Shown: positions 10,035 through 48,888, counted from the stretch's first letter. The stretch: 64,000 nt of DNA from Candidatus Nanoarchaeia archaeon (GCA_028711165.1 JAQTST010000001.1:300520-364519); one strand, 5' to 3'. The notes: generated from the sequence alone by a model not told the origin. Program-made: numbers and translations.

Positions 10035-10055
10035 AATTTGAGTCCTGCCTGATAG
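10035..10055 (+). repeat. Degenerate copy of the intergenic repeat core (AATTTGaGTCctGCCTGATAg)
   Basis: 18 of 21 matches to the core found at 11211, 16727, 16785 and 19561. It lies directly upstream of the sigma gene's TATA-like box. Confidence 0.5.
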
Positions 10056-10056
10056 T

Positions 10057-10064
10057 TTTTTAAA
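10057..10064 (+). promoter_or_regulatory. TATA-like box (TTTTTAAA) 27-29 nt upstream of ATG 10086 of the sigma-like gene
   Basis: Archaeal-type promoter geometry in front of a bacterial-type gene. Confidence 0.4.
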
Positions 10065-10076
10065 TCCTATTTTTAT

Positions 10077-10910
10077 GTGTTTTCTATGATAAAAAATAAT
10101 AACCATGAAATACTTTCAATTTATCTTAAAGAGATAGATCGATATAAATTATTAGACAGAGACGAAGAAAAGAGTTATGCAATCAGAGCAAAAAACGGCG
10201 ATAAAGATGCAAGGAAAAAATTAATTGAAAGTAATCTCCGTTTTGTTGTCAGTGTTGCAAAAAAATTTCAGGGGAATGGTTTGCCTTTGGAGGATTTAAT
10301 TTCAGAAGGAAATATTGGACTTATGGATTCTATTAAAAAATATGAACCTGGAAAAGGATATCATTTTGTAACTTATGCTGTCTGGTGGATAAGACAAAAA
10401 ATTCTGAAAGCAATTATAGAACAACCGAAAACCGTGAGAGTTCCTGTTAACAAAAGAGTTTCAATAAAAAAAATAAATAGGACTTATGATGCTCTTGTAA
10501 ATGCTCATAATAAAACACCGACGATGGAAGAAATTGCTGAAGCAGTTGGAATTCCTTACGAGCAGTTCAGAGAGATTGAAGAATTAGACCAAATTAGTTC
10601 TTTAGATGCTTATGAAAAAGAGCCTCCTCTTTCCAGTTTAAACGGCTGTGATTATAAATCTCCCGACGAAGAGGCTACAGATAATGTTCTTGGAGAAGAA
10701 ATTAAATCTGCTTTTGAACATGCTCATTTAAGCGATAAAGAAAAAATAATTTTAGAACAGAGATTTGGACTTAATGGGAAAGGCGAACATGCTCTTGCAG
10801 AGATTGGCTTGAAATTTAATTTAACCAAAGAGAGAATAAGACAAATTGAGAAGAAGGCAATAGACAGATTGAAAGATGATTCTTATATGAATAAATTAGT
10901 TTCTAACTGA
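10077..10910 (+). CDS. Bacterial-type sigma-70 family factor (regions 2, 3 and 4 present)
   Basis: Region 2: LIESNLRFVVSVAKKF...EDLISEGNIGLMDSIKKYEPGKGYHFVTYAVWWIRQKI. A region 3-like segment is present. Region 4.2 HTH: LAEIGLKFNLTKERIRQIEKKAIDRLK. The track start is a GTG at 10077; the ATG at 10086 is the more likely start. Confidence 0.85.
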   Translation: MFSMIKNNNHEILSIYLKEIDRYKLLDRDEEKSYAIRAKNGDKDARKKLIESNLRFVVSVAKKFQGNGLPLEDLISEGNIGLMDSIKKYEPGKGYHFVTYAVWWIRQKILKAIIEQPKTVRVPVNKRVSIKKINRTYDALVNAHNKTPTMEEIAEAVGIPYEQFREIEELDQISSLDAYEKEPPLSSLNGCDYKSPDEEATDNVLGEEIKSAFEHAHLSDKEKIILEQRFGLNGKGEHALAEIGLKFNLTKERIRQIEKKAIDRLKDDSYMNKLVSN

Positions 10911-10956
10911 TTTAATAAGAAATTTTAAATATGCTAATTCAATGATAAATTGATAC

Positions 10957-10970
10957 GAGCCTATAGCTCA
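10957..10970 (+). repeat. 14-nt duplicate of the 5' end of tRNA-Ile (GAGCCTATAGCTCA)
   Basis: Identical to 11048..11061. The sequence after it does not complete a D arm. Confidence 0.8.
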
Positions 10971-11047
10971 CCGGGTTTCTTTAGAAAAGAAACTACGCTG
11001 GTAGAAATGCTTAAAATGCATTCATTCGCTATAGACTTTACAAACAG

Positions 11048-11170
11048 GAGCCTATAGCTCAGCCAGGTTAGAGCACCGCTCTTATAAGAGCTTGTTCCGT
11101 TAGGGACATGTTTTCAAGGTTAACAAACTAAGAAAGGCGGGGGTCCACAGTTCAAATCTGTGTAGGCTCA
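11048..11170 (+). tRNA. tRNA-Ile(UAU) with ~48-nt intron at the anticodon loop
   Basis: Hand-folded: acceptor GAGCCTA/TAGGCTC, D stem GCTC/GAGC, anticodon stem CCGCT/GGCGG (one U-G pair), loop CTTATAA (U33, anticodon TAT, A37), T arm CACAG-TTCAAAT-CTGTG, discriminator A. Confidence 0.8.
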
Positions 11171-11184
11171 TAAAGAAAACCCCT

Positions 11185-11232
11185 GTTTTTCTTTATCAAT
11201 CTATCCTCTGAATTTGGGTCACGCCTGATAAG
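11185..11232 (+). repeat. Intergenic repeat copy (GTTTTTCTTTATCAA...AATTTGGGTCACGCCTGATAAG)
   Basis: About 90% identical over ~48 nt to 19536..19583. It ends 5 nt before the ychF-like TATA box. Confidence 0.85.
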
Positions 11233-11266
11233 AATAATTTAAATAATCTTTTTTTGAATTAATGAT

Positions 11267-12454
11267 ATGTTAATTGGACTTGTGGGAAAACCTTCGGTTG
11301 GGAAAAGCACGTTTTTCAAAGCAGCGACTCTCGCAGAAGTTGAGATTGCTTCTTATCCTTTCACGACGATAAAACCTAATCACGGAATTGGTTACGTCAA
11401 AGTTGACTGCATCGACAAAGAGTTTAAGACACAGTGCAATCCTAATCACGGATTTTGTCTGAATCACAAAAGATTTGTCCCTGTTGATTTGATGGATGTT
11501 GCAGGACTTGTGCCAGGAGCCAGCGAGGGAAAAGGGCTTGGAAATCAGTTTCTTGACGATTTGAGACAGGCAGATGTTTTTATCCAAATTGTAGACTGCT
11601 CAGGAACAACCGACGAGACAGGAAAACCGACAGAAAATTATGATGTGACAAAAGATGTTATTTTCCTTGAGGATGAACTTGACAAATGGTTTCTTGGAAT
11701 CCTGATGAAAGTCTGGAAAAGTTTTGCGAGAAAAATAGAAATGGACGGCGATGATTTTGCAAAGGCAGTTGTTAATCAGTTTTCAGGTTTGAAAGTCAAG
11801 GAAGAGCATGTCAAGAGAGTTTTGTCCAAACTTAATTTTTCTGCTCAGCCAAGCCGATGGAATGACAAACAGCTTTTGGAATTTGCTTCTGAACTTAGAA
11901 AACAAAGCAAGCCGATGATTATTGCTGCTAACAAAATTGATACTCCCGACGGAAAAATGAATTATGAAAAACTGAAAAAGAAATTCCCTGAAAAAATAAT
12001 TATTCCCTGCTCTGCTGATTCTGAACTTGCTTTGAGAGAAGCTGCGAAGGCTGGATTAATTAATTACATTCCAGGAGAAAGAAGTTTTGACATAAAAGGA
12101 AATCTCAATGAGAAACAGAGAAATGCCGTCGATAAAATTAAAAAAAATGTTCTTGACGAATATGAAACAGGAACAGGAATTCAGGAAATTTTGAATTATG
12201 CAGTTTTTGAATTGCTGAAATATCTTGCAATTTTTCCTGCAGGAGCAACCAAGCTCGCTGACAGCAAGGGAAATATTTTGCCCGATTGTTTTTTGCTTCC
12301 TCCGAATTCAACGGCGTTAGATTTTGCTTTTTTCCTTCACACTGATTTTGGGAAAAATTTTAACAGAGGAATCGACGCCAGAACCAAAAAAATTCTCGGA
12401 AGAGATTACAAACTGAAAAACAGAGATGCGCTGGAAATTGTGACCGGGAGATAA
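11267..12454 (+). CDS. Obg/YchF-family GTPase/ATPase (Ygr210-like) with C-terminal TGS domain
   Basis: P-loop GKPSVGKST, G3 DVAGLV, NKID, and a TGS-like C-terminus. TTTAAAT box 29 nt upstream. Confidence 0.8.
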   Translation: MLIGLVGKPSVGKSTFFKAATLAEVEIASYPFTTIKPNHGIGYVKVDCIDKEFKTQCNPNHGFCLNHKRFVPVDLMDVAGLVPGASEGKGLGNQFLDDLRQADVFIQIVDCSGTTDETGKPTENYDVTKDVIFLEDELDKWFLGILMKVWKSFARKIEMDGDDFAKAVVNQFSGLKVKEEHVKRVLSKLNFSAQPSRWNDKQLLEFASELRKQSKPMIIAANKIDTPDGKMNYEKLKKKFPEKIIIPCSADSELALREAAKAGLINYIPGERSFDIKGNLNEKQRNAVDKIKKNVLDEYETGTGIQEILNYAVFELLKYLAIFPAGATKLADSKGNILPDCFLLPPNSTALDFAFFLHTDFGKNFNRGIDARTKKILGRDYKLKNRDALEIVTGR

Positions 12455-12769
12455 TTATCTCTGCTCGCTAACTCTAAATTTCTTTTCTATCTCATTCTCT
12501 ATCTTTGCCATTGCTTTGTGAATTGCTCTTGCGAAATCATAATCCCACGAACTTGAGTTTAACATTTTTCCCGAAAAAATCACTTCTGCATTAAGGCTGT
12601 ATTTTCTGTTTTTACCGTCCTTATCATATTCTTTAATGTGCATTTTTAACCGAAAAGGATTTTTTAACAATCGCTGGATTTTTTCGTAATATTCTTCAAG
12701 GAGCTTATCGGCTATTTTTTTATCTTTTTCTGTCAGAATGTTTGTATTTACAATTTCTACATTTTCCAT
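12455..12769 (-). CDS. Possible ribosome hibernation factor-like protein (YfiA/HPF fold)
   Basis: 104 aa with a beta-alpha-beta-beta-beta-alpha-like pattern and WDYDFARAIHKAMAKIENEIEKK, which resembles the D.Y.AID...KLE.QL.K end of S30AE proteins. Judged by eye only. Confidence 0.3.
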   Translation of the reverse strand: MENVEIVNTNILTEKDKKIADKLLEEYYEKIQRLLKNPFRLKMHIKEYDKDGKNRKYSLNAEVIFSGKMLNSSSWDYDFARAIHKAMAKIENEIEKKFRVSEQR

Positions 12770-13317
12770 TTTTTAATAAAATTTATAAGTTCTTCAAACT
12801 TTTAAAATTTGTGCAGAACAAAAAGAGGATTGTGTTGAAAAAGGGAAGGTATGTGACGACGAAAAAAGGAGATTTTGTCCTCGGACTTTCCAGTAAAATA
12901 ACTAATTATCTAAAACCTTATTGCAGACGAATTCTGGTTGTAGGAAGCATAAGGCGAAAAGAAAAAAATCCCGTCGATATTGATATTGTTTTGATTCCAA
13001 AGGACAGAATAAAACTTGAAAATTTTCTGAGAAAAAAAGGACGATTCATTCAGGGCGGAGAAAAAAAATCGAGATGGAGAATTGAAGGAGTTAATGTTGA
13101 ATTGTATTACACGAATTCCGATGAATGGGGCGCTGCACTGCTTGCTTATTCCAGTGAGTTTGGAGCGGGAATTGGGCTGAGAGTTGTTGCGAAGAAAAAA
13201 GGTTTTAAGTTAAGTCAGCACGGGCTTTTCCGAGGAGCAAAGAGAGTTGCCGGGAAAACTGAAAAGGAAATTTACCATGCTCTTGGACGTCCTTACAAAA
13301 AACCTGAGAACCGATAA
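12742..13317 (+). CDS. Minimal family X (Pol beta-like) nucleotidyltransferase, palm plus thumb only
   Basis: VVGSIRRKEKNPVDIDIVLIP is the GS-motif plus DxD catalytic pair. FKLSQHGLF...TEKEIYHALGRPYKKPENR is a PolX thumb/C-terminal signature. No 8-kDa or fingers domain is present. The true start is probably downstream of 12742, which overlaps the convergent gene. Confidence 0.7.
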   Translation: MYLQFLHFPFFNKIYKFFKLLKFVQNKKRIVLKKGRYVTTKKGDFVLGLSSKITNYLKPYCRRILVVGSIRRKEKNPVDIDIVLIPKDRIKLENFLRKKGRFIQGGEKKSRWRIEGVNVELYYTNSDEWGAALLAYSSEFGAGIGLRVVAKKKGFKLSQHGLFRGAKRVAGKTEKEIYHALGRPYKKPENR

Positions 13318-13319
13318 AC

Positions 13320-13327
13320 TATAAAAA
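13320..13327 (+). promoter_or_regulatory. TATA box (TATAAAAA) 29 nt upstream of pilin-leader paralog A
   Basis: The block TATAAAAACCTGTTC..TTAATAATG is conserved with 19604 and 21037. Confidence 0.6.
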
Positions 13328-13348
13328 CCTGTTCTTATTATCTTAATA

Positions 13349-15418
13349 ATGAATAATAAAAGAGGTTTATCAACGATCATTATGACTTTGATAATAATTC
13401 TCGTCTCACTAGTTGCAGTAGGAATTTTCTGGGTTGTTGTTCAAAATTTGATTAAAGGAAGTTCAGAAAATATTGGATTTGGAAGTTTAACTTTAAACGC
13501 AGAAATTAAAGGAGTTCAGATTGATAATTCGTCGAATAATGTAAGTCTAATTGTCAAGCGAAATACAGGAGAAGGAGACATGACTGGAATCAAATTTATT
13601 TTTTACAGCGACGATAAAAACGAAATCATCGAGCAGGATATTCAACTTGAAGAACTTGAACAAAAAAGTTTCCACTTTCATTTGGCGATGAATGTTTCAC
13701 TTTTAACAAAAATTTCTATTTATCCAATTTTCCTTTCTGGCGGAAAAGAAAACGTTGGAAATATTGCAGATAGCTATGATGTCAAAACAGGGACGAGAAT
13801 TGTGATTCCACCGTCGGGATGTACGCCAACAACAAATCCATGCGGAAGCAGAATCTGCGGAAATATTGCAAACGGAACCTGCGGAAGCATCAGCTGCGGA
13901 ACCTGTTCAGTAGGAACCTGCAACGCAACAGGACAATGTGCAACAAGCTGTGTACCGACGACATGTGAAGCATTAGGACACAATTGCGGAAGCGGTTATG
14001 CTAATGGGACATGTGCAGGAACACTAACCTGTGGAAGTTATGGGGGAGGCTGTCAGTCAGGATACACTTGCGTTGGTGGAACTTGTGTCGAGGAAACCGG
14101 ATACACTTGCGGAAATAATATCGTCGAGCCTGGAGAAGCATGCGATGGGACAAATCTTTCTGGTTACACTTGTGCAACAGTTGCAGCAGGATTTGCTTCG
14201 GGAAGTTTAAGCTGCAATTCAAACTGCAGAAGTTATGTCACAACTTCATGCGTTGCAGGAGACATAATAAACGCTGCTTCATGCTCTCAGGCAAATGTTC
14301 AGTCAGCAATTAATTCTGCCAGCGACGGAGATATTGTTCAAGTTCCTGCAGGAAGCTGTACGTGGAGCAGTACTGTAACTATTAATTCAAAAAATATAAT
14401 ATTGCGCGGGGCGGGAATTGACAAGACAAATATTACTGACGGAACAGGCACGGGCTGGAATGAAAATTTAATCAATGTAAATTGTGTAGAAGGCAAACCT
14501 TTCCGTGTCACTGGATTTAGTTTTCCCTGCGTTGTTGGAGACGGTACTTATAAAATTTATGTCGCTGGAACCTGCAAAAACTGGCGTGTAGACCATTCTA
14601 AATTTGAAGCTACTGGTGCTCCGCCAAAAGCCTCTGCAGTCATACCTGATGGTTATACCTACGGAGTTATAGATCACTGTATATTTAATGATGCAAGAAA
14701 CTGGATGGATGGGGATGGCGGTAATTCGTGGACGAGACCGCTTAATTTAGGAACCTCGGAAGCAGTATATATAGAAGATAATTATTATTATCAAACTGTC
14801 TTTGGAAATGTAGTCGACTCTAGCGACGGAGCATCTTATGTATTCCGTTATAATAGAGTTAATGGAACTGCTGACGGAGGATACATAGAAGCTCATAGTG
14901 GCTGTCCAAACGGACAGAGAGCGACGTTTAAATATGAAATTTATAATAATACTCTTAATCTAAACGATGTATGGGCTCTTGCTGGATTGAGGGGAGGAAC
15001 GGGCGTTGTTTTTGATAATATTTTTACTGGTGTTTCTGTAGGCGTTCCACATATTTCAGTTGACGATGAAAGAACATGCGCCCCTTATAATGGCTGTATT
15101 GGACTTTGGTCTGGGTGGAATTCTACCTGTAATGGAACTTCTCCTTACGATGGCAATACTCCGGGCATGTTTGGTTATGCCTGCAGAGACCAGATTGGAC
15201 GTTCGACAGATTCGGGTATTTTAACACCGCAGTCACTTGAACCATTGTATGAATGGGACAATAAATATAATGGAAATGATGTAGACATTGTGATTAATCC
15301 TGTGGCGTGCGCCCTGACATCTGTTCATATTCAGGAAAACAGAGATTATTACAATGACATGGAGAGACCAAATTATGTTCCTTATGCTTATCCTCATCCT
15401 ATTGCTTTAATTAATTAG
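13349..15418 (+). CDS. Surface protein: class III (archaeal type IV pilin-like) signal peptide, conserved ~150-aa module, Cys-rich repeats, right-handed beta-helix-like domain (paralog A)
   Basis: N-terminus MNNKRG/LSTIIMTLIIILVSLVAVGIFWVVV. Cys-rich CG..CG repeats including CGNNIVEPGEACDG. Then SCSQANVQSAINSASDGDIVQVPAGSCTW followed by a beta-helix-like region. The C-terminus YPHPIALIN is shared with paralog C. Confidence 0.75.
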   Translation: MNNKRGLSTIIMTLIIILVSLVAVGIFWVVVQNLIKGSSENIGFGSLTLNAEIKGVQIDNSSNNVSLIVKRNTGEGDMTGIKFIFYSDDKNEIIEQDIQLEELEQKSFHFHLAMNVSLLTKISIYPIFLSGGKENVGNIADSYDVKTGTRIVIPPSGCTPTTNPCGSRICGNIANGTCGSISCGTCSVGTCNATGQCATSCVPTTCEALGHNCGSGYANGTCAGTLTCGSYGGGCQSGYTCVGGTCVEETGYTCGNNIVEPGEACDGTNLSGYTCATVAAGFASGSLSCNSNCRSYVTTSCVAGDIINAASCSQANVQSAINSASDGDIVQVPAGSCTWSSTVTINSKNIILRGAGIDKTNITDGTGTGWNENLINVNCVEGKPFRVTGFSFPCVVGDGTYKIYVAGTCKNWRVDHSKFEATGAPPKASAVIPDGYTYGVIDHCIFNDARNWMDGDGGNSWTRPLNLGTSEAVYIEDNYYYQTVFGNVVDSSDGASYVFRYNRVNGTADGGYIEAHSGCPNGQRATFKYEIYNNTLNLNDVWALAGLRGGTGVVFDNIFTGVSVGVPHISVDDERTCAPYNGCIGLWSGWNSTCNGTSPYDGNTPGMFGYACRDQIGRSTDSGILTPQSLEPLYEWDNKYNGNDVDIVINPVACALTSVHIQENRDYYNDMERPNYVPYAYPHPIALIN

Positions 15419-15456
15419 ACAGATAATATTTTAAATAATTCTTCTTATGTAAAATT

Positions 15457-15714
15457 ATGATAATAAAAGTTAAAGTGAAACCAAATTCTTCAAAGCAGAG
15501 CGTCGAGAGTTTTGGTGATAACAGATATTTAGTTCATGTCAAATCAGAACCAGAAAATGACAAGGCAAATATTGAAATGATAAAATTGCTCTCGAAAGAG
15601 CTTGGTGTTCCTGAAAAAAGTTTTCACATAAAATTCGGGAGAACCGGACATGAGAAAATGATAATGACAGAACTTCGTTCAGCACAAATAAAAATTCAAG
15701 GAGAATTTTCATAA
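15457..15714 (+). CDS. DUF167 (YggU-like) protein whose last 17 codons lie in a repeat element
   Basis: IKVKVKPNSSKQSVE...DKANIEMIKLLSKELGV...GRTGHEKMI fits the YggU pattern. The tail IMTELRSAQIKIQGEFS is encoded by repeat 15661..15717. Confidence 0.65.
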   Translation: MIIKVKVKPNSSKQSVESFGDNRYLVHVKSEPENDKANIEMIKLLSKELGVPEKSFHIKFGRTGHEKMIMTELRSAQIKIQGEFS

Positions 15715-15717
15715 TGA
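15661..15717 (+). repeat. Leader repeat copy A (ATAATGACAGAAC...CAGCACAAATAAAAATTCAAGGAGAATTTTCATAATGA)
   Basis: Matches 42288..42300 plus 42350..42386 almost exactly (one indel). It supplies the SD (GGAG) and ATG of the next gene. Confidence 0.85.
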
Positions 15718-16115
15718 AATACGAATTTGCCGACGATTTGCAGAAACTTGCCGAAGAAATTTCTCTGATGTTTTTTCCGCATGTTGATTTGTCGAATGTA
15801 AAATGCTACAGAAGCTACGGAACTTCGTCGAGAGGAACAATAGCGAGATGCCACGCTCTGAACAAAATAATGCAGAAAGCAATCGGAATAAAAGCAGTTT
15901 ATGTCCTTGAATTTCTTGTTGAAAGATTTGAAAAGCTCGACGACGAAGAGAAAATCAAAGTTGTAATTCACGAACTGATGCACATTCCAAAAAGTTTTGG
16001 CGGAGGATTTATACACCATGATGTTGTTACAAACAGGAATGTAAATAGATGCTATGCCGAATACAAAAAGAAAAAAGAGGAAAAAGTTGAGAAGCAAAAA
16101 ATTAATTATTGGTGA
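15714..16115 (+). CDS. Predicted zinc metallopeptidase (HExxH; SprT/COG4900-like)
   Basis: HELMHIP motif in a ~130-aa protein of the small archaeal 'predicted metallopeptidase' type. Its start overlaps the upstream stop (TAATG). Confidence 0.6.
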   Translation: MKYEFADDLQKLAEEISLMFFPHVDLSNVKCYRSYGTSSRGTIARCHALNKIMQKAIGIKAVYVLEFLVERFEKLDDEEKIKVVIHELMHIPKSFGGGFIHHDVVTNRNVNRCYAEYKKKKEEKVEKQKINYW

Positions 16116-16431
16116 GGGGGGGAAAAAAATAAAAATCTCTGCCGAAGACTGCAACAATTTTGAAAAGTTTACCGGATTAATGTTTTCCCGACGGGAAAAA
16201 GCAAAAATTTTGCTTTTCAATTTCAAAAGAAAACAAGAAATAGCAATTCATTCTTTTTTTGTGTTCTACAAATTCCTTGCTGTCTGGCTTGACGATAAGA
16301 ATAATGTCATTGACACCAAAATTGTAAAGCCATTTACTTTTTGTGTTTTCCCGTCGAGACCTGCATTTAAATTAGTTGAAATTCCGATAAATCAAAATAA
16401 TAGGAATATAATTTCATTTTTCCGTCGGTGA
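16054..16431 (+). CDS. DUF192 family protein
   Basis: GLMFSRRE...LLFNF...FVFYKFLAVWLDDKNNVID fits the DUF192 (COG1430) pattern. The start is uncertain, because the ATG at 16054 overlaps the upstream gene by 62 nt. Confidence 0.55.
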   Translation: MPNTKRKKRKKLRSKKLIIGEGGKKIKISAEDCNNFEKFTGLMFSRREKAKILLFNFKRKQEIAIHSFFVFYKFLAVWLDDKNNVIDTKIVKPFTFCVFPSRPAFKLVEIPINQNNRNIISFFRR

Positions 16432-16492
16432 GACGAAACATTTAAATATATATTCGACGATATATTTATTAAAATCTGAAAGGAGGTGAAAA

Positions 16493-16648
16493 ATGGGAAA
16501 AATTGTTGTTCACAAAGTAATCAAAAGAAAACCAGGACATCTTTACTATGTTGACGGAGCAGGAAACGTATGTGAAGCTGTAATGGCTAGGGGCGGAAAA
16601 AGAAAAAAAGGCGCAAAGAAAACTACAAAGAAAAAGAAAAGAAGATAA
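16493..16648 (+). CDS. Small basic protein (51 aa), not in the ORF track
   Basis: Strong SD AGGAGGTGA 4 nt upstream. My translation: MGKIVVHKVIKRKPGHLYYVDGAGNVCEAVMARGGKRKKGAKKTTKKKKRR. Confidence 0.55.
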   Translation: MGKIVVHKVIKRKPGHLYYVDGAGNVCEAVMARGGKRKKGAKKTTKKKKRR

Positions 16649-16689
16649 TCATATCAAATTTTTATTTTTTTATTTTAATTAATTTTCAA

Positions 16690-16808
16690 AAGACACCTTA
16701 TCGGTTTCTTTTGTAAGCTTCCCTTTAAATTTGGGTCACGCCTGTGTAAGACACCTAATCGGTTTCTTAACATTCAACTTCCCTTTAAATTTGGGTCACG
16801 CCTGATAA
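16690..16808 (+). repeat. Two tandem 58-nt copies of the intergenic repeat (AAGACACCTnATCGGTTTCTT-n7-9-CTTCCCTTTAAATTTGGGTCACGCCTG)
   Basis: The units start at 16690 and 16748. They are upstream of kae1. Confidence 0.9.
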
Positions 16809-16836
16809 CAAATTCTAATTTTTTTATTTACAATAA

Positions 16837-16844: not shown

Positions 16845-16865
16845 TATTTATTTATTGAAAAATGT

Positions 16866-19349: not shown

Positions 19350-19535
19350 ATGCCTAAATGTGTTTATTGCGGAACAGTGTATGAACCTCCAAGAGGACTT
19401 ACTTTTGTAACTAAAGACGGTACTCCAAAATATTTGTGTTCTTCAAAGTGCAGAAAAAATATGTTCATGAAGCGAAGAAAAGTTAATTGGGTTCGAAAGT
19501 CTGAAGAGATGAAATCAAAAATAAAGAGAACCTAA
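19350..19535 (+). CDS. rpl24e: Ribosomal protein L24e
   Basis: MPKCVYCG...YLCSSKCRKN zinc-ribbon L24e pattern. Confidence 0.9.
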   Translation: MPKCVYCGTVYEPPRGLTFVTKDGTPKYLCSSKCRKNMFMKRRKVNWVRKSEEMKSKIKRT

Positions 19536-19583
19536 GTTTCTCTTTATCAAACTCTCCTTTAAATTTGGGTCACGCCTGATAAG
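19536..19583 (+). repeat. Intergenic repeat copy (GTTTCTCTTTATCAA...AATTTGGGTCACGCCTGATAAG)
   Basis: Near-identical to 11185..11232. It ends 20 nt before the TATA box of paralog B. Confidence 0.85.
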
Positions 19584-41963: not shown

Positions 41964-42291
41964 ATTAGAAACACCAGATTGGATTAAGGAAGGATTTGAT
42001 TCTAAGGCAGATTATGAAAAGGCTCACGGAAGTTCTAAAAAGAAAAAGGTTAGTGAGGAAAAAACTTTCAAAGTCAGAAAATGTCCTGAATGCGGAAGTT
42101 ATAATGTTAATGTTGTCCTGAGCGAACAGGAAGGCAGTGACGACGAGGAAGATTTGGAAAGTTCAAAAAAAGTAGTTGGTGAATGGGAATGCAAGAAGTG
42201 CAAATGGACAGGAAGAGATGTTGAAGAAGATGAATTGACTGAAGATGAATTCATGAAATATCTCGACGAGAAAGGAGAAGAGGTAGCATAA
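41956..42291 (+). CDS. Zinc-ribbon protein with acidic tail
   Basis: CPECGS...CKKCKW, two CxxC pairs. Confidence 0.5.
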   Translation: MGKLETPDWIKEGFDSKADYEKAHGSSKKKKVSEEKTFKVRKCPECGSYNVNVVLSEQEGSDDEEDLESSKKVVGEWECKKCKWTGRDVEEDELTEDEFMKYLDEKGEEVA

Positions 42292-42386
42292 TGACAGAAC
42301 AGAAGTTCACTTCAGACAGGAAGTCAGCCGTTCCGCACAGAAATGCGGACAGCACAAATAAAAATTCAGGAGAATTTTCATAATGA
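42288..42386 (+). repeat. Leader repeat copy B (long form) inserted between the zinc-ribbon ORF stop and the gyrA start
   Basis: The 13-nt direct repeat CATAATGACAGAA occurs at 42287..42299 and 42379..42391. The right arm CAGCACAAATAAAAATTCAGGAGAATTTTCATAATGA equals copy A. An internal hairpin CCGCA-CAGAAA-TGCGG is present. Confidence 0.85.
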
Positions 42387-44914
42387 CAGAAGATGAATTT
42401 ACCGACGAGGAGAAAGAAATAGAAGAAGAAATCGAAGATGAAGAAGAATTGGAAGAAAAGGAAACTAAAAAGAAACCTGTTGAAATTGTTATCGAGGATC
42501 CAAAGAGAGTAATTCCTACTGAAGTGTCTGAGGAAATGAAGAAGGCATATCTTGATTATGCGATGTCTGTTATTGTTTCGCGTGCGATTCCTGCAATTGA
42601 GGACGGAATGAAACCTGTTCAGAGAAGAATTTTATATTCAATGCATTTGATGGGACTGAAACCAGGGAGCCAGACTAAGAAATCAGCGAGGGTTGTCGGA
42701 GATGTTATTGGTAAATTCCATCCTCACGGTGATACTGCTGTTTACGACGCTATGGTAAGAATGGCACAGGATTTTTCATTGCGTTATCCTCTTGTTTTCG
42801 GGCAGGGAAATTTTGGTAGCATCGACGGAGATCCGCCAGCTGCTTATCGTTATACTGAAGCAAGACTGCAACATATTGCAATGGAATTACTTGAAGACAT
42901 TGACAAGGAAACTGTTAAGTTCACACCTAATTTTGATAATTCTCTGAAAGAACCTGACTTGCTTCCGGGAAAACTTCCGTCGCTGATGCTTAACGGTGCA
43001 ACAGGAATTGCCGTCGGTATGGCTACAAATATTCCTCCGCACAATCTCAGAGAAGTCTGTGATGCTATTGTTGCTTATGTTAAAAATGAGAATATAACTA
43101 TTGAAGAACTTTGCAATATTGTTACAGGGCCTGACTTTCCGACGGGCGGAAGTGTTTCGGGTGACATGCTTGAATTGTATAAGACAGGAAGAGGAAGATT
43201 AATTGTCAGGGGAAAAGTTTCTGTCGAGCATTTGAAAAACAAGGAAGCGATTGTCATAACTGAAATTCCTTACATGCTTAACAAGACTTCACTCGTCGAG
43301 CAGATTGCTGAATTAGTTCAAAATAAAAAACTGAAAGATCTTTCTGACTTGAGAGATGAAAGTTCGAAAGGGAAAATTAGAATTGTTCTTGAAATGCGAA
43401 AAGGTGCGAGCGCTGATTTTGTCATAAATTCTCTTTACAAATACACGAGACTGCAGGACAGCTTCAACGTGAATTTCCTTGCTCTCGTCGGCGGACAGCC
43501 AAGAATTTTGAATTTGAGAAATGTTCTTGAAGAATATGTAAAATACAGAAAAGCAATAATTACCAACAGAACAAAGTTTGAATTGAAGAAATCAAAAGAC
43601 AGACTTGAAATTGTCGACGGTTTGATAATTGCTCTGAAGAATATCGACGCTGTTATTGATTTAATCAAGAAGTCCAAGGGAACAACAGAAGCTCTCGAAG
43701 GTTTGATGAAGAAATTTAATCTCAGCAAAAAACAGGCTCAGGCAGTTTTGGAAACAAAGCTTCAGCAGTTGACTTCTCTTGAACAGGAAAAATTGAAGAA
43801 AGAACAGAAAGAATTAGTTGAGAGGATTGCAGAACTTGAAAAGATACTTTCTGATGTTAAGGAAGTTTTGAAAATAATTGTCAAAGAAGTTAATGGACTG
43901 AAAGAGAAATACGGCGATACAAGGAATACAAATGTTCTTAAGAGAATTACTGAAATTTCCGAGAGAGATTTGGTTCAGGAAAAAGAAGTTGTTGTTACAA
44001 TCACTGACAAGGGCTACTGCAAGAGAATGGATGCCAAGACTTACAAGGAACAGAAGAGGGGAGGCAAGGGAGTTATTGGAAGCAATTTAGCGACAGGAGA
44101 TTTTGTCAAGCAGATGATTGTCTGTTCAACTCATGATTATCTTATGTTTTTCACGACGAGGGGGAGAGTTTTGTGGCTGAAGACTTATGATATTCCTGAA
44201 GCAGAAAGATACAGCAAGGGAAAAGCTGTGATTAATCTTCTTGGGCTTAAAGATGAAAATGTTACAAATGTAATTTCTGTCAAGAGTTTTGATGACGATT
44301 TGTTCATGGCGACTAAGAAAGGAGTTGTCAAGAAAATTTCATTATCTGAATTTTCAAAACCAAGGGCTTCCGGGATTCACGCTATAAATCTTCCTTCTGA
44401 TAATTCTGATTCATTAATCGGAGTTGACGTTCTGAAAAAAGGACAGGAAGTTTCTCTTGCGACGAAAAAAGGAAAAGCAATAAGATTCAACAGCAATGAT
44501 GTCAGAGAAACAGGAAGAGCAAGTTATGGCGTTACAGGAATAAAGCTCGACGCTGATGATGAAGTTGTCAGTTCAGGAATTCTTAACACCGAGGCAATTT
44601 TGACTATTTCGAAAAACGGTTTTGGAAAGAGAACTGCTGTCAAGGATTACAGAAAAACAGCAAGGGCAGGAAAAGGAGTAATTAATTTGAAAGTCAGCGA
44701 GAAGACAGGAGATGTTGTTTCTACAATTTCTGTCGACGATAAAGACAGCATAATTATAACAACAGCGAAGGGAATGGTTATCAGAACTTCTCTGGAACAT
44801 ATCAGAGTTATGGGAAGAGCTGCGCAGGGAGTCAGAATTGTAAAACTTCACGAGGGAGATTATGTTACTGACATGATAAAAGTCAAAGAAGGAATTGGAG
44901 AGGAAGGGGAATAA
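42383..44914 (+). CDS. gyrA: DNA gyrase subunit A (with ~45-aa acidic N-terminal extension)
   Basis: [18 protein letters not shown], active-site region [10 protein letters not shown], and C-terminal beta-pinwheel repeats. 843 aa. Confidence 0.92.
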
Positions 44915-45676
44915 TTATTTCCACCCCTCGCAGATATTTCTATATTCACACCAATCGCATAATCTTGTCTTATTTGCAGGAAAATCTTTTGTCTGTTCTA
45001 TTTCGTTAATTAATTCTATGACATTTTTTCTTAGTAGTTCTAATTTTTCATTTGTGCTGTTTATGCAGATTTTCATATCGTGGGCGAGGAAATGCCAAAC
45101 CATGCAGACGTTTTTGTCTTTTCCGTATCTTTCTTTTATTGCGATGGAATAGAGTGCGAGCTGTCTGCTATTTTCGATTTTGTCCCTCGACAAAACACTT
45201 GCGCTTGTTTTATAATCGTGAATTTCTATTTCGTTTTTTTCTAAATTGTGAACTAGTCTGTCTATATAACCAATTATTTTTTTATCTCCTGTTCCGTCTA
45301 AATCAATTTCAATTTTCTGTTCTGTTGCGATTGTGTTGTCTGTGAACGGCTGATGTTTCAGATAATAATTAATCAGAAATTCCACGCCCCTCTGGAAATA
45401 ATCTTCTGCTTTCATTTCTTTCCTGACAATCAGGAAATCATCGATGAAATTTTGTATCCATTTTTCTGTATAGCAGTCTATTACTTCTGTTATTGTCGGA
45501 ATTGTTTTTTCCATAACTTTTTTGTAAAGCCATTCAAGAGCTTCGTGAACTGTGCTTCCGAGATAAGCTTCAATGCTTTTTGGGATATCAGGAACTATTT
45601 TGTCAATGTACCGATATTTGAATTTTAACCTGCAATTTTCAAAAGTTTCAAGTTTCGAATGAGAATAATTCACCAT
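44915..45676 (-). CDS. PD-(D/E)XK nuclease, Cas4/RecB-like, with Cys cluster
   Basis: SHSKLETFENCRLKFKYRYI N-terminus, GYIDRL...EIHDYKTS (D...ExK core), and C-terminal CDWCEYRNIC. The four Cys fit an Fe-S cluster as in Cas4/AddB. Confidence 0.7.
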   Translation of the reverse strand: MVNYSHSKLETFENCRLKFKYRYIDKIVPDIPKSIEAYLGSTVHEALEWLYKKVMEKTIPTITEVIDCYTEKWIQNFIDDFLIVRKEMKAEDYFQRGVEFLINYYLKHQPFTDNTIATEQKIEIDLDGTGDKKIIGYIDRLVHNLEKNEIEIHDYKTSASVLSRDKIENSRQLALYSIAIKERYGKDKNVCMVWHFLAHDMKICINSTNEKLELLRKNVIELINEIEQTKDFPANKTRLCDWCEYRNICEGWK

Positions 45677-45708
45677 TAATTTTTAGAGAGATAGATAATT
45701 ATAAACAT

Positions 45709-46683
45709 TTAGGCAGTCATAAGTGCTATTGGTTCATACAAATCGCTTTTTTCACACGAGTAAGTATCACGCATTATTCTACTGACAACTTTGCTGTTTT
45801 TCAAACCATATTTTTTTGCGATGTGTGAATAAGGAATTTCTTTATCCCCGGTTAATTCTCTTTTAATCTGCTCAATTAAATTTGAATTCTTTAAATCGCG
45901 ATATGTAAGCAGATTATTTTCCTGCTTGTAATTTAAAATCTCTTTAATATTTTCTTTTTTTACTTCTCTTGTCCAATACTTTATCTTGTTTTTTGAAATC
46001 CTGCTGGCTTCTGAAAGTTCTTCTATTTTACTTTTCTTTGGGGCTTGGCTGAGAATTTTTTCTTTCAAGAAATAACTTCTGAGAAAATCGTCGTAGAATA
46101 AAACTGCTACGACTTCATTAGTTTTGCCCTCGAGATTTTTATTTTTACGGCATATTTCTCCTGCAATTTTGAATACTTTATTTTTTACATCCACTATCTC
46201 GCTTAATCTCTTTCCTGAAAAATCTTCCTGTCTGCTTATGTATTCGAGCAATGAACCTTCTGGCAAATATATCTGGCTGATTTTAATTCCATCCACTTCT
46301 GTTTCATCTCCTATTTTCGTGTTGTAAATATTTCCTTCATCGAAATCTTTTCTGTTTTCTAAATTTTCTCTCAGAACAGAATCTGATTTGATTATTTTTC
46401 TTGTCTTGGCTGCAGTATTTTTTCCAGAGAAAAAGTCCTGGGTTAATTTCCAGAGTCTAGACGGTAAATTATTCATTCCCACATTTTTGAATTCTTCAAT
46501 TGAATGGTAGAAGACAGGTTCTTTTGGCTTTTCTTTTACTTTCAGAGAAGACATAGCCTTTACTCCTATATCAACCAGATTCATTTTTTTACCTAGAGGA
46601 ATCAAAGTTCCGTTGTAGGAAGTAATGTAATCTATTTCTTTTCCTAAAATCTTTTGCAGGTTCTCATCATATATTGACATCAT
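45709..46683 (-). CDS. Hypothetical protein with two C-terminal HTH-like segments
   Basis: IEELSEASRISKNKIKYW and YSHIAKKYGLKNSKVVSRIMRD look like HTH motifs. The N-terminal ~220 aa is unrecognised. Confidence 0.4.
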   Translation of the reverse strand: MMSIYDENLQKILGKEIDYITSYNGTLIPLGKKMNLVDIGVKAMSSLKVKEKPKEPVFYHSIEEFKNVGMNNLPSRLWKLTQDFFSGKNTAAKTRKIIKSDSVLRENLENRKDFDEGNIYNTKIGDETEVDGIKISQIYLPEGSLLEYISRQEDFSGKRLSEIVDVKNKVFKIAGEICRKNKNLEGKTNEVVAVLFYDDFLRSYFLKEKILSQAPKKSKIEELSEASRISKNKIKYWTREVKKENIKEILNYKQENNLLTYRDLKNSNLIEQIKRELTGDKEIPYSHIAKKYGLKNSKVVSRIMRDTYSCEKSDLYEPIALMTA

Positions 46684-46710
46684 ATTCCTAGAAAAAATTG
46701 ATATATAAAA

Positions 46711-47529
46711 TTAATTATTCTGGATAAACTCACATTCGCTCGTCTCAGAATTCCACTTTTCAAATCCTTTGCTAATACAGCAATTATCATTTTCGCCGGG
46801 GGTTACTGTCCCGCAACTTGCTCCGACAATTCCTTCACTTTCATCATCTTTTGCCAGGAATGCCCACCAAGAATTTTTTATCTGAACTAATCTTCCTGTT
46901 TCAGGGTTAAGTTCTGCTTCTACGGAAACTTTGACTGGAAATACTGAAAATAACTTTGCCCCTTTTTCTCCCCTGTATCTGTAAATGTTATCCTCGCCAA
47001 AAGTTATACTTTCATTTTCAAGTTGCTTTTGGAGTCTTTCTCTTATTTTTTCTTTTATCTGGTCTGGAAGAAGTCTGACTCTTACAGTCTCATTATTTTT
47101 GTTGACTGCGTAGATTTTTCCGTCGGATTTGTATAATGTTACACTTGTCGAAGCATTTATTCCTTTTACCTGAATAATAATATTTCCTGATTTTCCTGCA
47201 GTAATTGTCATTTCTCTTGTGCCGTCTTCAAGAATACATTTTGTTGCACTTCCTGTACAAGTGCAATTGTTTGGACATTCTGCTGCTGAAGCAGCCGCAG
47301 CTTTTATTCTATTTCGATATTTGAATATTTTTCTGATTTGCTCATCAGTTAAATTCCCGCCTGCTCTTTCTCTAATTTTATTTTGGACTGTTGTTTCGTC
47401 GTCGGCAGCCTGTATTTGATTTGTATCATTATCATTTAATTTTTCTATTGTTTTGCTTGTCATTGCTCCTGCAGAAATTAAGCTAATCAAGAATAAAGTT
47501 ATTACTGCAAATGTCACCAATTTTTTCAT
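46711..47529 (-). CDS. Secreted Cys-containing protein
   Basis: Signal/TM MKKLVTFAVITLFLISLISAGA; a central ...NSWWAFLAKDD motif; C-terminal Cys pairs. Confidence 0.55.
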   Translation of the reverse strand: MKKLVTFAVITLFLISLISAGAMTSKTIEKLNDNDTNQIQAADDETTVQNKIRERAGGNLTDEQIRKIFKYRNRIKAAAASAAECPNNCTCTGSATKCILEDGTREMTITAGKSGNIIIQVKGINASTSVTLYKSDGKIYAVNKNNETVRVRLLPDQIKEKIRERLQKQLENESITFGEDNIYRYRGEKGAKLFSVFPVKVSVEAELNPETGRLVQIKNSWWAFLAKDDESEGIVGASCGTVTPGENDNCCISKGFEKWNSETSECEFIQNN

Positions 47530-47570
47530 GTATATTTATGTCAATCAAAATTTATAAACCTAATGAAATG

Positions 47571-48767
47571 TTATACAATTTCCCCAAACCCGATTAATCT
47601 CCAGTGTCCGCCGATATTTCTTGCAATTCCGACGTTGTCGCCTTTCATTGAAACTATTGGAATATTAAGGAAAAGTTCTGCCTCGTTTTTGTTTATCTTT
47701 TCGATTGTCCCGACGGTAATTGTTGTGTTGGCACTCAGCATCAGCATTTCTTTTGTTTTTAATGGCACGACTTCTTTGTGCTCTGAAATTCCCAGAATTT
47801 CTTCGAATAATTGTGTCTTGATTTTTATCTTGTAGCTAATCTCGGGAAGTTTTCCTTTTAATCCAGCGACGCATCCTGACAGAGAATCTGCTTTTGTAAG
47901 GAAAGGGTCTAATTCAGTTTCAATTGATATGCTTGCTCCCGGGATAACTTCATTAACAGACTGGTTCCCTCTGTGAAGCGAGAGAATTTTTGTTGTAAGA
48001 GTCTGATAAGTTTGCTGGTTTGCTTTTTTTATGCTTAATCCTGGTTTTATTTCAATTTCATCACCGACGGCTAATGTTCCTTTTTTCAGGATTCCTCCGA
48101 GGACACCGCCATGCAATTTTTCTGCGGGCAATCCGGGGCGATTAATATCAAAACTTCTTGCAATCAAAAAAATCGGTTCTGAAGAAGCATCTCTTTTTGG
48201 AATTTCAATTTTTGCAATTTCTTCAATTAATCTGTCGAGATTAATTTCCTGCTGAGCAGAAACAGGAATTATCGGGGAATTTTCTGCGATGGTTCCTTTG
48301 ACGAAATTTTTTATGTCGTTGTAATTTTTCAGCGCCTGCTCTTTTGTAGCCAAATCTATTTTATTCTGGACGATGATTATATTTTTTATTTTTTTTGCCT
48401 GAAGCGCGATGAAGTGCTCTCTTGTCTGCGGTTTTATTCCTTCGTTTGCAGCGATTACTAAAATTGCAGCGTCGATAATTGCGGCTCCCGAAAGCATTGT
48501 TGCCATGAGCATTTCGTGTCCCGGCGCGTCGATAAAACTTACATATCTGACAGGAGTTCGTTTTCCTTTGTTGTTGTAATTATTTCCTTCTTTAGAAATT
48601 ATCATGTCGGCGTAGCCGAGTTTTATTGTGATTCCTCTTTTCAATTCTTCTGAGTGCGTGTCTGGGAATTTTCCAGTCAGCTTTGCTAACAAGGTTGTTT
48701 TTCCGTGGTCAATATGTCCGACAACTCCGACGTTAAGTTCTGGAATTTGAGTTTCTTCTTTTGTCAT
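47571..48767 (-). CDS. eif2g: Translation initiation factor aIF2 gamma subunit
   Basis: VGVVGHIDHGKTTL, DAPGHE, QNKID and three-domain length. I set the start to M8 (48767) because a TATA-like box lies 29 nt upstream; the track start is 48788. Confidence 0.9.
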   Translation of the reverse strand: MTKEETQIPELNVGVVGHIDHGKTTLLAKLTGKFPDTHSEELKRGITIKLGYADMIISKEGNNYNNKGKRTPVRYVSFIDAPGHEMLMATMLSGAAIIDAAILVIAANEGIKPQTREHFIALQAKKIKNIIIVQNKIDLATKEQALKNYNDIKNFVKGTIAENSPIIPVSAQQEINLDRLIEEIAKIEIPKRDASSEPIFLIARSFDINRPGLPAEKLHGGVLGGILKKGTLAVGDEIEIKPGLSIKKANQQTYQTLTTKILSLHRGNQSVNEVIPGASISIETELDPFLTKADSLSGCVAGLKGKLPEISYKIKIKTQLFEEILGISEHKEVVPLKTKEMLMLSANTTITVGTIEKINKNEAELFLNIPIVSMKGDNVGIARNIGGHWRLIGFGEIV

Positions 48768-48827
48768 TAAAATTTGAGAAGAAATCAATTAAAAAAGGTT
48801 TGGGTAAGAAATAATTATCCAGCTCAA

Positions 48828-48888
48828 AAGACACCTTCTCGGTTTCTTTTGTAAACTTCCCCTTGTAATACTGCTCACGGCTGATTAG
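48828..48888 (+). repeat. Diverged full-length copy of the intergenic repeat, overlapping the last codons of rps6e
   Basis: AAGACACCTTCTCGGTTTCTTTTGTAAACTTCCCCTTGTAATACTGCTCACGGCTGATTAG aligns with 16690..16746. The reverse complement of the core encodes the S6e C-terminus ...APNQP*. Confidence 0.65.

Follow-up and report, generated by a model that had tools for sequence, protein, structure and literature searches.

Several described families of repeats and mobile elements resemble the one analysed here. The IS200/IS605 elements and the non-autonomous PATEs (Y1 HUH TnpA; PMC5027513, PMC3597680) likewise bear hairpins with a conserved stem irregularity instead of terminal inverted repeats, generate no target duplication and include miniature non-coding units. 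Strand-specific insertion, for which IS200/IS605-type elements provide the precedent (PMC5027513), gives them a strong chromosomal orientation bias. REP and BIME sequences, with their RAYT (TnpA-REP) proteins (PMC3333891, PMC3733652, PMC6006769), are also short, lineage-specific intergenic hairpin repeats present in tens of copies; their stems are kept by compensatory change and they are thought to be handled as single-stranded DNA. Integron attC sites are recognised as folded single strands with unpaired bases, only one strand being recombinogenic, and the sites of an array are co-oriented. Finally, Rickettsia palindromic elements (RPE) and mycobacterial MIRUs are small repeats that survive in and between genes by means of an open frame, and some contain a mini-ORF that ends in a stop codon overlapping the start codon that follows. 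Hairpin repeats of small size are widespread, but none of the literature searched describes a family that points one way across a chromosome and re-aligns after inversions.

The present family departs from each of these systems. IS200/IS605 elements and PATEs have a subterminal hairpin at each end and a conserved tetra- or pentanucleotide target at the left, whereas here there is one large hairpin followed by a 35-nt conserved tail, and no such target. PATEs have a cognate Y1 enzyme with similar ends, whereas our searches find no Y1 here or in the majority of carriers, and the single IS200-like element found in the genus has other hairpins. The bias of the IS200/IS605 group follows replication (top strand on the lagging-strand template); here it is 28 to 0, with no flip at the putative origin or antipode. 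REP sequences are 20-40 bp long, carry a GTAG/CGTC tag, are found on either side of a RAYT gene and mostly pair up in inverted orientation (BIMEs), whereas the units described here are about 62 nt, untagged and all direct. The attC sites cluster behind an integrase gene and bound gene cassettes, whereas these copies are dispersed over 500 kb, and nothing resembling an integron integrase setting was noticed around them. RPE and MIRU orientation tracks the host gene or is mixed; here it tracks the chromosome, and mirror-image contexts are empty. The terminal inverted repeats and fixed-length target-site duplication of a classical MITE are both absent, as are the fixed orientation and distance to a gene of an archaeal promoter or regulator site. 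On balance, we think that the family consists of non-autonomous, miniature, hairpin-bearing mobile elements that belong to one genus-level Pacearchaeota group and a handful of its sister genera; they would be recognised in single-stranded form and inserted into one strand only.

Results

Copies in the window and unit architecture

The window analysed is a 64,000-nt stretch of a Candidatus Nanoarchaeia archaeon genome (GCA_028711165.1, JAQTST010000001.1:300520-364519). The core AATTTGGGTCACGCCTGATAAG is matched at 11211, 16788 and 19562 (at most one mismatch), compared with none expected by chance. The repeat family reported in a preliminary description of the window is real; it has 28 copies contig-wide and occurs in 12 of 16 congeners. 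That description counted seven copies and listed six; a covariance model and nhmmer recover five full copies, every one on the + strand, and one doubtful fragment besides:

11170..11229, + strand, subfamily D copy (ATAAAGAAAAC...), 57 bits
16687..16744, + strand, tandem unit 1, subfamily B (CAAAAGACACC...), nhmmer E=9e-17, 73.6 bits
16745..16806, + strand, tandem unit 2, subfamily C (TGTAAGACACC...), 90 bits, the best match
19521..19580, + strand, subfamily D copy, found by covariance model and nhmmer
48825..48885, + strand, diverged subfamily B copy between two minus-strand genes, 68.4 bits
10035..10055, + strand, possible decayed 3' fragment (TTTGAGTCCTGCCTGATAG), core match at 13 of 16 bases, nhmmer E=7.4

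The last of these, previously listed as a degenerate core, is not significant by itself and is thus at best a decayed 3' fragment; it sits next to an intron-containing tRNA (9854-9992, minus strand), on the 5' side of that gene. The unit measures roughly 62 nt (about 58-66 nt) and comprises a 10-12 bp hairpin at the 5' end, in most copies interrupted by a conserved C.T mismatch, then a pyrimidine-rich linker and a conserved tail, CTTCCCTTTAAATTTG-GnTCAnGnC-CTGAT. It extends from the foot of the covarying 5' hairpin to ...CTGA(T), and its ends (GCGN... and ...CTGAT) form no terminal inverted repeats; the only structure near the 3' end is a covarying 3-bp mini-helix enclosed in the tail, compared with the 10-12 bp hairpin at the 5' end. 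Tandem unit 1 terminates in ...GCCTG and abuts unit 2 in an exact head-to-tail junction.

Chromosome-wide polarity

All 28 copies on the 623-kb contig (nhmmer E<0.02) lie on the + strand and none on the minus strand (two-sided binomial probability 7e-9). They occupy all four gene contexts (+/+ 8, -/+ 9, -/- 7, +/- 4), at distances to the next gene that range from a 13-nt overlap up to several hundred nucleotides, and some fall within or right next to the ends of minus-strand genes, antisense to them. The genome-wide count of copies and orientations that had been suggested as a check therefore upholds the earlier view that the repeat is not a fixed promoter element. That view had noticed that the window copies are all written on the + strand but missed that the polarity is chromosome-wide and independent of genes. 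Because the copies point in one direction whatever the neighbouring genes, the family behaves as a strand-specific mobile element and not as a promoter or regulator site. Local selection was rejected as the source of the polarity, as every context in which copies are tolerated also exists in mirror image on the opposite strand, where it is empty. Two unrelated repeat families of this genome are also confined, or nearly so, to one strand.

Copy orientation is uniform per contig in the relatives as well. The contigs of genome G003 carry 16 copies on the minus strand and 1 on + (C4), 5 on minus (C6), and 3 on minus and 1 on + (C5); the 6 copies of G007 C1 and every copy of G016 C1 are on the minus strand. 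Where the flanks of relatives' copies could be mapped to this genome, 48 of 52 copies are '+' in its frame. In an 82-kb collinear block between G003 contig C4 and C3:370-452 kb of this genome, 10 of the 11 G003 copies are inverted relative to those found here, and these 10 agree with the remainder of their own contig. Orientation is thus independent of common descent as well as of local genes.

Distribution and mobility

We detected the element in three other genera of the same family in addition to the 12 congeners, but found no copy in 16 genomes that represent the order's other families; four congeneric genomes are without it. Carriers have between 1 and 42 copies per genome, and positions are not conserved between species. 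Non-orthologous copies in different species are 85-100% identical, compared with 73-85% for housekeeping DNA, and the element is preserved much more closely than the DNA around it. Five sites show sharp presence/absence junctions, at which insertion and loss are unpolarised:

C3:404086, against G011
C3:301.3 kb, against G009
C3:176.0 kb, against G009
C3:590.6 kb, copy present in this genome, against G007
the 48.8-kb copy of the window, against G007

Polymorphism of this kind between species lay beyond the view of the preliminary description, which was made from the sequence of the window alone. There is no consistent or fixed-length target duplication at the five clean junctions, and the left flanks of 88 copies contain no family-wide motif, including no shared tetranucleotide as in IS200/IS605 or REP. 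The CAT, TAA and TCA found to the left of copies in certain subfamilies are gene-boundary codons. Two 'empty' sites retain element-like ends (GCG...GCTGATAA and TGATAAG), which may be footprints or may reflect target preference. At the window's own ychF, kae1 and L24e positions, where gene order is disrupted or another spacer has taken over, comparison with empty sites yields the right-hand boundary only. Tandem arrays close with a 5' partial unit, other modules occur nested in the unit, always at the same position behind hairpin 1, and 3'-truncated copies are as common as 5'-truncated ones (for example, hmm positions 39-81).

Alternatively, the repeat could serve the host as a polar DNA signal, folded or duplex, that is bound by a chromosome-organising, replication or segregation protein and works in one orientation along the chromosome; selection, not selfish transposition, would then have spread and maintained the copies. 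Strict chromosome-wide polarity that persists after inversions would suit such a signal, as would the near-even distribution of copies between 90 and 590 kb, cross-species sequence conservation that greatly exceeds the neutral expectation, and the failure to find a transposase. However, we consider this explanation unlikely, given that the element is missing from the four congeners and all other families of the order, that its positions and copy number vary so widely between species, and that it occurs as tandem arrays, truncated pieces, nested composites and copies inside reading frames. Moreover, no copy lies in the 123 kb around the contig ends.

Covariation and folding

The 5' hairpin proposed earlier is real and covaries. 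Across 88 distinct copies from about 12 genomes, compensatory changes occur in both helices, at 10 of 12 pairs, and 92% of cells are paired, compared with 74% in shuffles and 35-60% with partners slid. One example of each helix, both supported by covariation, is given from tandem unit 1:

16689..16715, + strand, hairpin 1, AAAGACACC-TTATC-GGTTTCTTT, with C.T mismatch; also predicted as a hairpin by DNA folding
16734..16742, + strand, mini-helix 2, GG-T-CAC-G-CC, within the conserved core

In hairpin 1, both partners change at 8 of 9 pairs, and paired cells make up 90.9% of the total; the lower stem varies by subfamily (gcgN/Ncgc, caaa/tttg, tgta/(a)aca and ataa/ttat). Mini-helix 2, which is not stable by itself in folding, varies at pair 89-129 (GC 39, CG 35, UA 6) and pair 88-130 (GC 74, AU 3), whereas its closing T.G is invariant. 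The TCA-n4-TGA inverted repeat previously noted in the core is present, but its bases are invariant; it is the mutually exclusive mini-helix G(G/C)T-CAN-G(C/G)C that carries compensatory changes. Fold stability is modest (z -0.9 to -2.1). With the invariant T.G excluded, the counts are 11 G.T and 13 A.C cells, indicating no wobble excess of the RNA type.

Two covarying helices, a T-rich run after hairpin 1 and an invariant T.G that could represent a U.G wobble pair would be compatible with a structured RNA made from the + strand, either a small RNA gene family or a cis module (terminator, stabiliser or leader). The CTCC-loop subfamily is probably transcribed, though in antisense, as a leader of minus-strand genes. 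Nevertheless, we find an RNA function quite improbable. In Rfam 15 only tRNAs reach the gathering score in the window, and four copies with their flanks return nothing even at E<=1. There is no conserved promoter upstream of the unit, a minus-strand gene lies to the right of 11 and to the left of 16 of the 28 copies, with some antisense overlaps, and G.U pairs are no commoner than A.C. RNA genes would also not need placement on one strand when 40% of genes are on the other. C/D-box and H/ACA readings were set aside, inspection by eye finding no C box and no ACA.

Fit to gene boundaries

The copy at 11170-11229 begins directly 3' of an intron-containing tRNA-Leu(AAG) (11048/11088-11170), and the start codon of the ychF-like gene lies 37 nt downstream of its final base. 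A 61-nt stretch of this copy is 100% identical to G004:C3:24091-24151, whereas ychF is ~79% identical between the two genomes. In G014 the ychF site is without the element and retains the downstream promoter ATAAGAATAATTTAAATAATC. The kae1/tsaD start codon (16866) is 59 nt downstream of tandem unit 2; at the kae1 site G009 and G014 have a different spacer of ~400 nt with a minus-strand ORF and no element. The 5' ATAAAG of the 19521-19580 copy provides the TAA stop (19533-19535) of ribosomal protein L24e (19350-19535). In G009 and G014 L24e extends ~10-11 codons further (...KKGLKAKGKKE*), which implies that the element truncates or replaces the L24e tail here. As had been reported, the reverse complement of the 48.8-kb copy encodes the end of S6e (48875-49330, minus strand; ...KEKKAEAPNQP*), giving its last four codons and TGA stop; at the orthologous site of G007, which is without this copy, S6e ends differently. 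Among the gene names first assigned nearby, the sigma-70-type protein, the YchF/Obg-like GTPase and Kae1/TsaD hold, whereas the 'pilin-leader paralog' matched only a laminin-G/concanavalin-like domain in Pfam.

More generally, subfamily D carries a TAA stop to the 3' ends of + strand genes and tRNAs. Subfamily B, with one open reverse frame and coding-like flanks on both sides, appears to occupy coding tails of genes on the minus strand. The CTCC-loop subfamily offers, on its reverse complement, an ATG with an open mini-ORF as well as a GGAGGTG that lies seven bases ahead of minus-strand start codons, a mini-ORF arrangement like that of RPE and MIRU repeats. We propose that surviving copies look harmless because each subfamily brings what its type of site needs.

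Four copies in the window lie 37-59 nt upstream of + strand start codons, just before TATA-like boxes, as might be expected if the repeat served a regulon of + strand genes, either by binding a regulator or as an upstream activating site. We regard this as very unlikely: across the genome, a + strand gene lies downstream of only 17 of the 28 copies, near the 60% background; relatives that lack the element still conserve the ychF and kae1 promoters; and compensatory changes in the stem would not be expected of a duplex read by a protein. Among the four options originally offered, the MITE-like element is the nearest; the regulator site and the terminator or small RNA module are disfavoured by the gene contexts, the antisense copies and the ychF box that is conserved without the element.

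Search for a mobilising enzyme

Y1_Tnp (PF01797) was found in 2 of 17 genus genomes and is absent from 14 of 16 congeners and from this genome, an absence that is not absolute as the genome is ~89% complete. The IS200-like elements of G008 and G010 were rejected as the mobiliser, since their end hairpins differ and the nearest copies are ~800 nt away behind another ORF; the ends in G008, CCCTGTGG-TCTTG-CCACAGGG and CCCTAAGG-TCTTG-CCTTAGGG, are unrelated to the element. TnpB was not found in this genome and scores above cut-off only in G015, which has no copies, and reverse transcriptase (RVT_1) occurs in 2 of 17 genus genomes, this one not among them; both were dismissed as mobilisers because their phyletic distribution is mismatched. 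On viral contigs the hairpin pattern has no matches, and the degenerate core pattern matches 4 contigs, which are chance matches because none carries the element by the covariance model.

We give little credence to a SINE-like retroelement, copied from RNA by reverse transcriptase and inserted by target priming with TGATAAG at empty sites as the microhomology: the 3' terminal TGATAAG/GCTGATAA common to element and empty sites, the conserved 3' tail and the 5'-truncated copies would fit, but RVT_1 is absent here and from 15 of 17 genus genomes, 3'-truncated copies are equally common, tandem arrays end in 5' partial units, and there is no poly-A or other mark of retroposition.

Replication direction and strand asymmetry

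In this genome, all 16 windows of 40 kb have a positive GC skew at four-fold sites after correction for transcription. A canonical-looking origin, with an ORB-like inverted pair, an AT-rich stretch and orc1/cdc6, lies at C3:~99.5-99.9 kb. Genes are in excess on the + strand on both sides of it, and 40% are on the other strand. The polarity of the repeats is unflipped at this orc1-adjacent site (~99.7 kb) and near 410 kb. Corrected cumulative TA skew has its minimum at the origin-like site and levels off near the antipode (~410 kb). GC skew and gene orientation point to one replication direction, whereas TA skew points to two. The TA-skew pattern could reflect ordinary bidirectional replication, in which case the unflipped polarity would not be coupled to replication. 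Outside this genome we do not take GC skew to track polarity, because the contigs of G003 and G007 have only a weak or inconsistent strand-wide term. A reading of the hairpin plus GGG as an origin recognition box (ORB) was also rejected, the copies being dispersed and all direct.

Discussion

If the family is mobile, the element would be recognised as folded single-stranded DNA, as suggested by helices kept through compensatory changes, one conserved mismatch and G.T cells no commoner than A.C. A putative trans-acting enzyme would then paste it into only one of the two strands. Replication-linked insertion would give one polarity over 623 kb only if replication is essentially one-directional, or if there is some other chromosome-wide strand asymmetry. 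We tentatively raise the possibility that these Pacearchaeota replicate essentially one way, or expose one strand genome-wide, and that they host an undescribed hairpin-guided single-strand mobility system without a recognisable Y1, TnpB or reverse transcriptase enzyme. This proposal draws on a strict, inversion-proof polarity that at least two unrelated repeat families of the genome have in common with this one, a transcription-corrected G>C skew that never switches, and a + strand gene excess on both sides of the origin. To our knowledge, no experimental data on the direction of genome replication in DPANN exist.

The finding affects gene calling, as the ends of L24e and S6e and several start codons lie inside the repeat. 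A compact genome (~90% coding by a crude ORF call) tolerates insertions that carry their own stop, or a start with a mini-ORF and ribosome-binding site. If the polarity does not report replication, another chromosome-wide strand asymmetry must exist. If it does, the repeats would provide a built-in compass for the copying of ultra-small DPANN genomes, testable from metagenomic read depth.

Copies and anatomy of the element

We read the copies in the window and then searched with profile (nhmmer) and covariance models. The Pacearchaeales genome under study (G000) is represented by a 637-kb assembly (~89% complete, 34.6% G+C) that includes a 623-kb contig without Ns (C3). The repeat core reported in the preliminary description is real: the window (C3:300520-364519) contains three matches to a 22-mer, each with no more than one mismatch, and none would be expected by chance. 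Profile and covariance model searches identified five full copies of the element in the window, all on the + strand.

Full element copies in the window (profile and covariance model)
11170-11229, +, element copy
16687-16744 and 16745-16806, +, two element copies in perfect head-to-tail tandem
19521-19580, +, element copy
48825-48885, +, element copy

The degenerate core previously proposed at 10035-10055 does match at 13 of 16 bases, but on its own it is not significant (nhmmer E=7.4). Across C3, nhmmer detects 28 copies at E<0.02, all on the + strand and all between 90 and 590 kb; with matches up to E=10 included, 38 of 39 are on +. The stretches next to the contig ends (C3:590700-623136 and 1-90400; ~123 kb together) yielded no copy, against an expectation of ~7 from the average density. 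Both the + gene bias and the GC strand term reach their maximum in this zone.

Alignment of 20 G000 copies (A1), and of a wider set of 88 distinct copies taken from ~12 congeneric genomes (A2), gave the consensus nTGnnAaGACACCtnatCGGTTTCtTtnGCttaAnCTTcCCttTaAATttgGnTCAnGnCTGATna, for which Rfam contains no matching family. The 5' boundary is the foot of hairpin 1. The upper stem of this hairpin is RGACACC / GGTTTCY, with a C.T mismatch retained in 72 of the 88 copies, and it is capped by a TAATC, TTATC or TCC loop. Subfamilies differ in the lower stem (3-4 bp): gcgN...Ncgc, caaa...tttg, tgta...(a)aca or ataa...ttat. A linker of 3-9 nt and the pyrimidine run CTTCCC follow, and 3' of this run lies the conserved tail TTTAAATTTG-G(G/C)TCAnG(C/G)C-TGAT.

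The helix covariation check revealed compensatory changes in both helices (88 copies; the 20-copy set agrees). Paired cells make up 92.1% of the helices, compared with 74.1% in column shuffles and 35-60% when the partners are slid, and 10 of 12 pairs have changed on both sides. At the middle pair of the core mini-helix, 39 copies have GC, 35 have CG and 6 have UA. The TCA-n4-TGA inverted repeat that had been noted in the core finds no support, as it is invariant and mutually exclusive with this covarying mini-helix. Outside one invariant T.G there is no G.T excess (G.T 11 versus A.C 13), a pattern unlike that of RNA helices, in which G.U is usually commoner than A.C. Folding as single-stranded DNA has modest predicted stability (z -0.9 to -2.1).

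Mobility

Relatives carry copies at sites that are empty in G000, and vice versa. Clean junctions were obtained for G011 against C3:404086, for G009 against C3:301.3 kb and C3:176.0 kb, and for the G000 copies at C3:590.6 kb and at 48.8 kb of the window against G007 (all three being relatives of G000). They define the inserted segment as running from the hairpin foot to CTGA(T); terminal inverted repeats were not seen, nor was any consistent duplication. At C3:404086, two minus-strand genes of G000 overlap by ATGA; in G011 the element lies between both genes and is read through in frame, again ending in ATGA. Head-to-tail arrays are common and terminate in a partial 5' unit, truncation occurs at either end, and other modules are nested in the element at one fixed point 3' of hairpin 1.

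Between species, copies from sites that are not orthologous share 85-94% identity (61/61 bases in one case), compared with 76-85% for the ychF gene adjoining the element, so the element sequence is under constraint. Such constraint would be expected if the element has to be recognized by a trans-acting factor. Two 'empty' sites retain GCG...GCTGATAA or TGATAAG, and the related genome G014 retains ATAAG ahead of the ychF promoter. These retained ends may be footprints of loss or may reflect target preference.

Placement at gene boundaries

At least half of the copies abut the end of a gene or tRNA with their left (hairpin) side. On the right, 30-50 nt typically separate the copy from the next gene. 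Subfamily D (ATAAAGA...) lies 3' of tRNA ends or provides the TAA stop of + strand genes; in the window, this shortens L24e by about ten codons relative to G009 and G014. The CTCC-loop subfamily follows CAT, the ATG of a minus-strand gene in reverse complement. Its own reverse complement supplies an ATG at the old leaderless position and an open mini-ORF of ~21-24 codons, with GGAGGTG seven bases 5' of the real ATG and a stop just past it. Subfamily B has one open reverse frame, and its copies are located within minus-strand genes or at their ends; in the window, S6e ends ...APNQP* within such a copy.

The window also contains two long-intron tRNA genes, 123-139 nt in total length, at 9854-9992 (-) and 11048-11170 (+). 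Rfam calls both, while ARAGORN misses the first and shortens the second. Positions 10077-10910 (+) encode a complete sigma-70 protein of the bacterial type, in which Pfam detects regions 1.2, 2, 3 and 4 (best E 3e-20). The gene is on the main archaeal contig, between intron-containing tRNA genes. Its presence in an archaeon is unusual, suggesting horizontal acquisition.

Polarity of the element relative to genes

A crude ORF call assigns 60% of C3 genes to + and 40% to -, and the all-+ copies occur in every gene context.

Orientation of the genes flanking element copies (left/right)
+/+, 8 copies
-/+, 9 copies
-/-, 7 copies
+/-, 4 copies

Orientation is therefore a property of the chromosome and not of the genes, and for this reason a promoter, operator, terminator or UTR role is excluded for the family as a whole. 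Mirror-image contexts on the other strand exist for every boundary type described, and all are without the element; local selection therefore explains which insertions survive, not their polarity.

Other repeats of G000 are also oriented. The unrelated family TTCCTAATACCTCC, a dispersed hairpin repeat (taAGAACCgaGGTTCCTAATACCTCC), has 12 copies on + and 0 on - (for example C3 147666, 227404, 257999, 382866, 597964 and 612362), one of them nested in the loop of the element copy at C3:258 kb. An unrelated GC-rich modular repeat, aCTCGAGCCCCCACTC...TCGTGAAAACTCTC, has ~17 on + and 2 on - (271.8 and 277.1 kb). Examples of the latter are at C3 133544, 177839, 192330, 226441, 250303, 282080 and 602439, and it sits at a fixed point within element copies at C3:122.9 kb and 455.2 kb. 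We also observed a mini-ORF cassette, ATGACAGAA..GCACAAATACAAAA..TTTTGCATAATG, on gene start codons with its direction tied to the gene (16 + and 3 -, compared with 60% of genes on +). It occurs at C3 86670, 90952, 121167, 277889, 382295 and 614291, among others, and in the window at ~15681 (C3:316201) and ~42351 (C3:342871).

Distribution and polarity in relatives

By covariance model, 12 of the 16 further genomes of the genus contain the element (1 to 42 copies each), as do three additional genera of this family; 16 genomes representing the order's other families gave no match. Orientation is near-uniform per contig in the relatives too, and 48 of 52 of their copies with flanks mapped onto G000 are + in the G000 frame. 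Three of the four exceptions are informative. C3:370-452 kb has a collinear, co-oriented counterpart at 18-125 kb of G003 contig C4. Of the 11 G003 copies within this block, 10 are nevertheless inverted relative to the G000 copies there; they share the polarity of the remainder of C4, the first block of which is inverted relative to G000. Contig C5 of G003 shows a like pattern across three blocks alternating in orientation. Thus, polarity is re-set by, or re-acquired after, rearrangement. Inheritance along with the local sequence does not account for it.

Replication as a possible source of polarity

To our knowledge, replication is the only well-established strand asymmetry at chromosome scale. 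Among well-studied elements, such a bias is known only from single-strand transposons that exploit the lagging-strand template (PMC5027513). On C3, the GC skew at four-fold sites, corrected for transcription, stays positive in all 16 windows of 40 kb and breaks at the origin in sawtooth fashion (lowest just right of ~100 kb, highest just left). The + strand carries most genes in 99-410 kb as well as in the other half (crude ORF call), and three repeat families on C3 show no polarity flip. Together, the GC skew, the gene majority and the unflipped repeats suggest that G000 may replicate in one direction; monotonic cumulative GC skew is seen in small CPR bacterial genomes, for which unidirectional theta replication has been proposed (PMC7143001).

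Other signals speak against replication in one direction. The only orc1/cdc6 copy lies at C3:~99.9-101.1 kb, with a canonical-looking origin directly upstream (~99500-101100 region): an ORB-like inverted pair, TTTCCAGTCGAAA..GGAGGG / TTTCCACAGGAAC..GAGGGGT, around an AT-rich (TAA)n. The cumulative TA skew, after correction, drops to a sharp minimum exactly at this site (98.5 kb) and flattens near the antipode (~410 kb). Ordinary bidirectional replication would look like this, and the GC and TA skews of C3 conflict. The GC strand term is weak on the contigs of G003 and G007. On contigs with a gene-orientation bias, the top strand of the element is the majority coding strand in every case. Element polarity may therefore be coupled to replication, an inference from these sequence signals.

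Known systems and candidate enzymes

The element works most like single-strand hairpin elements of the IS200/IS605 or REP type, but it lacks a target tetranucleotide, a clear pair of end hairpins and, in the genomes searched, a cognate transposase, and its polarity does not flip on C3. Its tolerance tricks at gene boundaries recall RPEs and MIRUs. Our literature search found no description of such elements in DPANN archaea.

We searched 17 genomes of the genus for a mobilizing enzyme. Y1_Tnp occurs in two of them, where the hairpins of the host element are unrelated to those studied here; RVT_1 occurs in two; and TnpB exceeds the cut-off in one, a genome without element copies. Neither Y1_Tnp nor RVT_1 was found in the ~89% complete G000 assembly, and viral contigs yielded no element copy. 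Three IS200-like Y1 genes are present in G008 and one in G010. An intact IS200-like element in G008 (L093, contig C77, 1414-1929) carries the hairpins CCCTGTGG-TCTTG-CCACAGGG and CCCTAAGG-TCTTG-CCTTAGGG, and the gene for its Y1 transposase (150 aa) lies between them.

The factor that moves the element could be a host enzyme, or could be encoded on an unsampled plasmid or virus. The chromosome-wide polarity is unusual. We conclude that the element is a real, lineage-specific miniature element that is mobile or was recently mobile.
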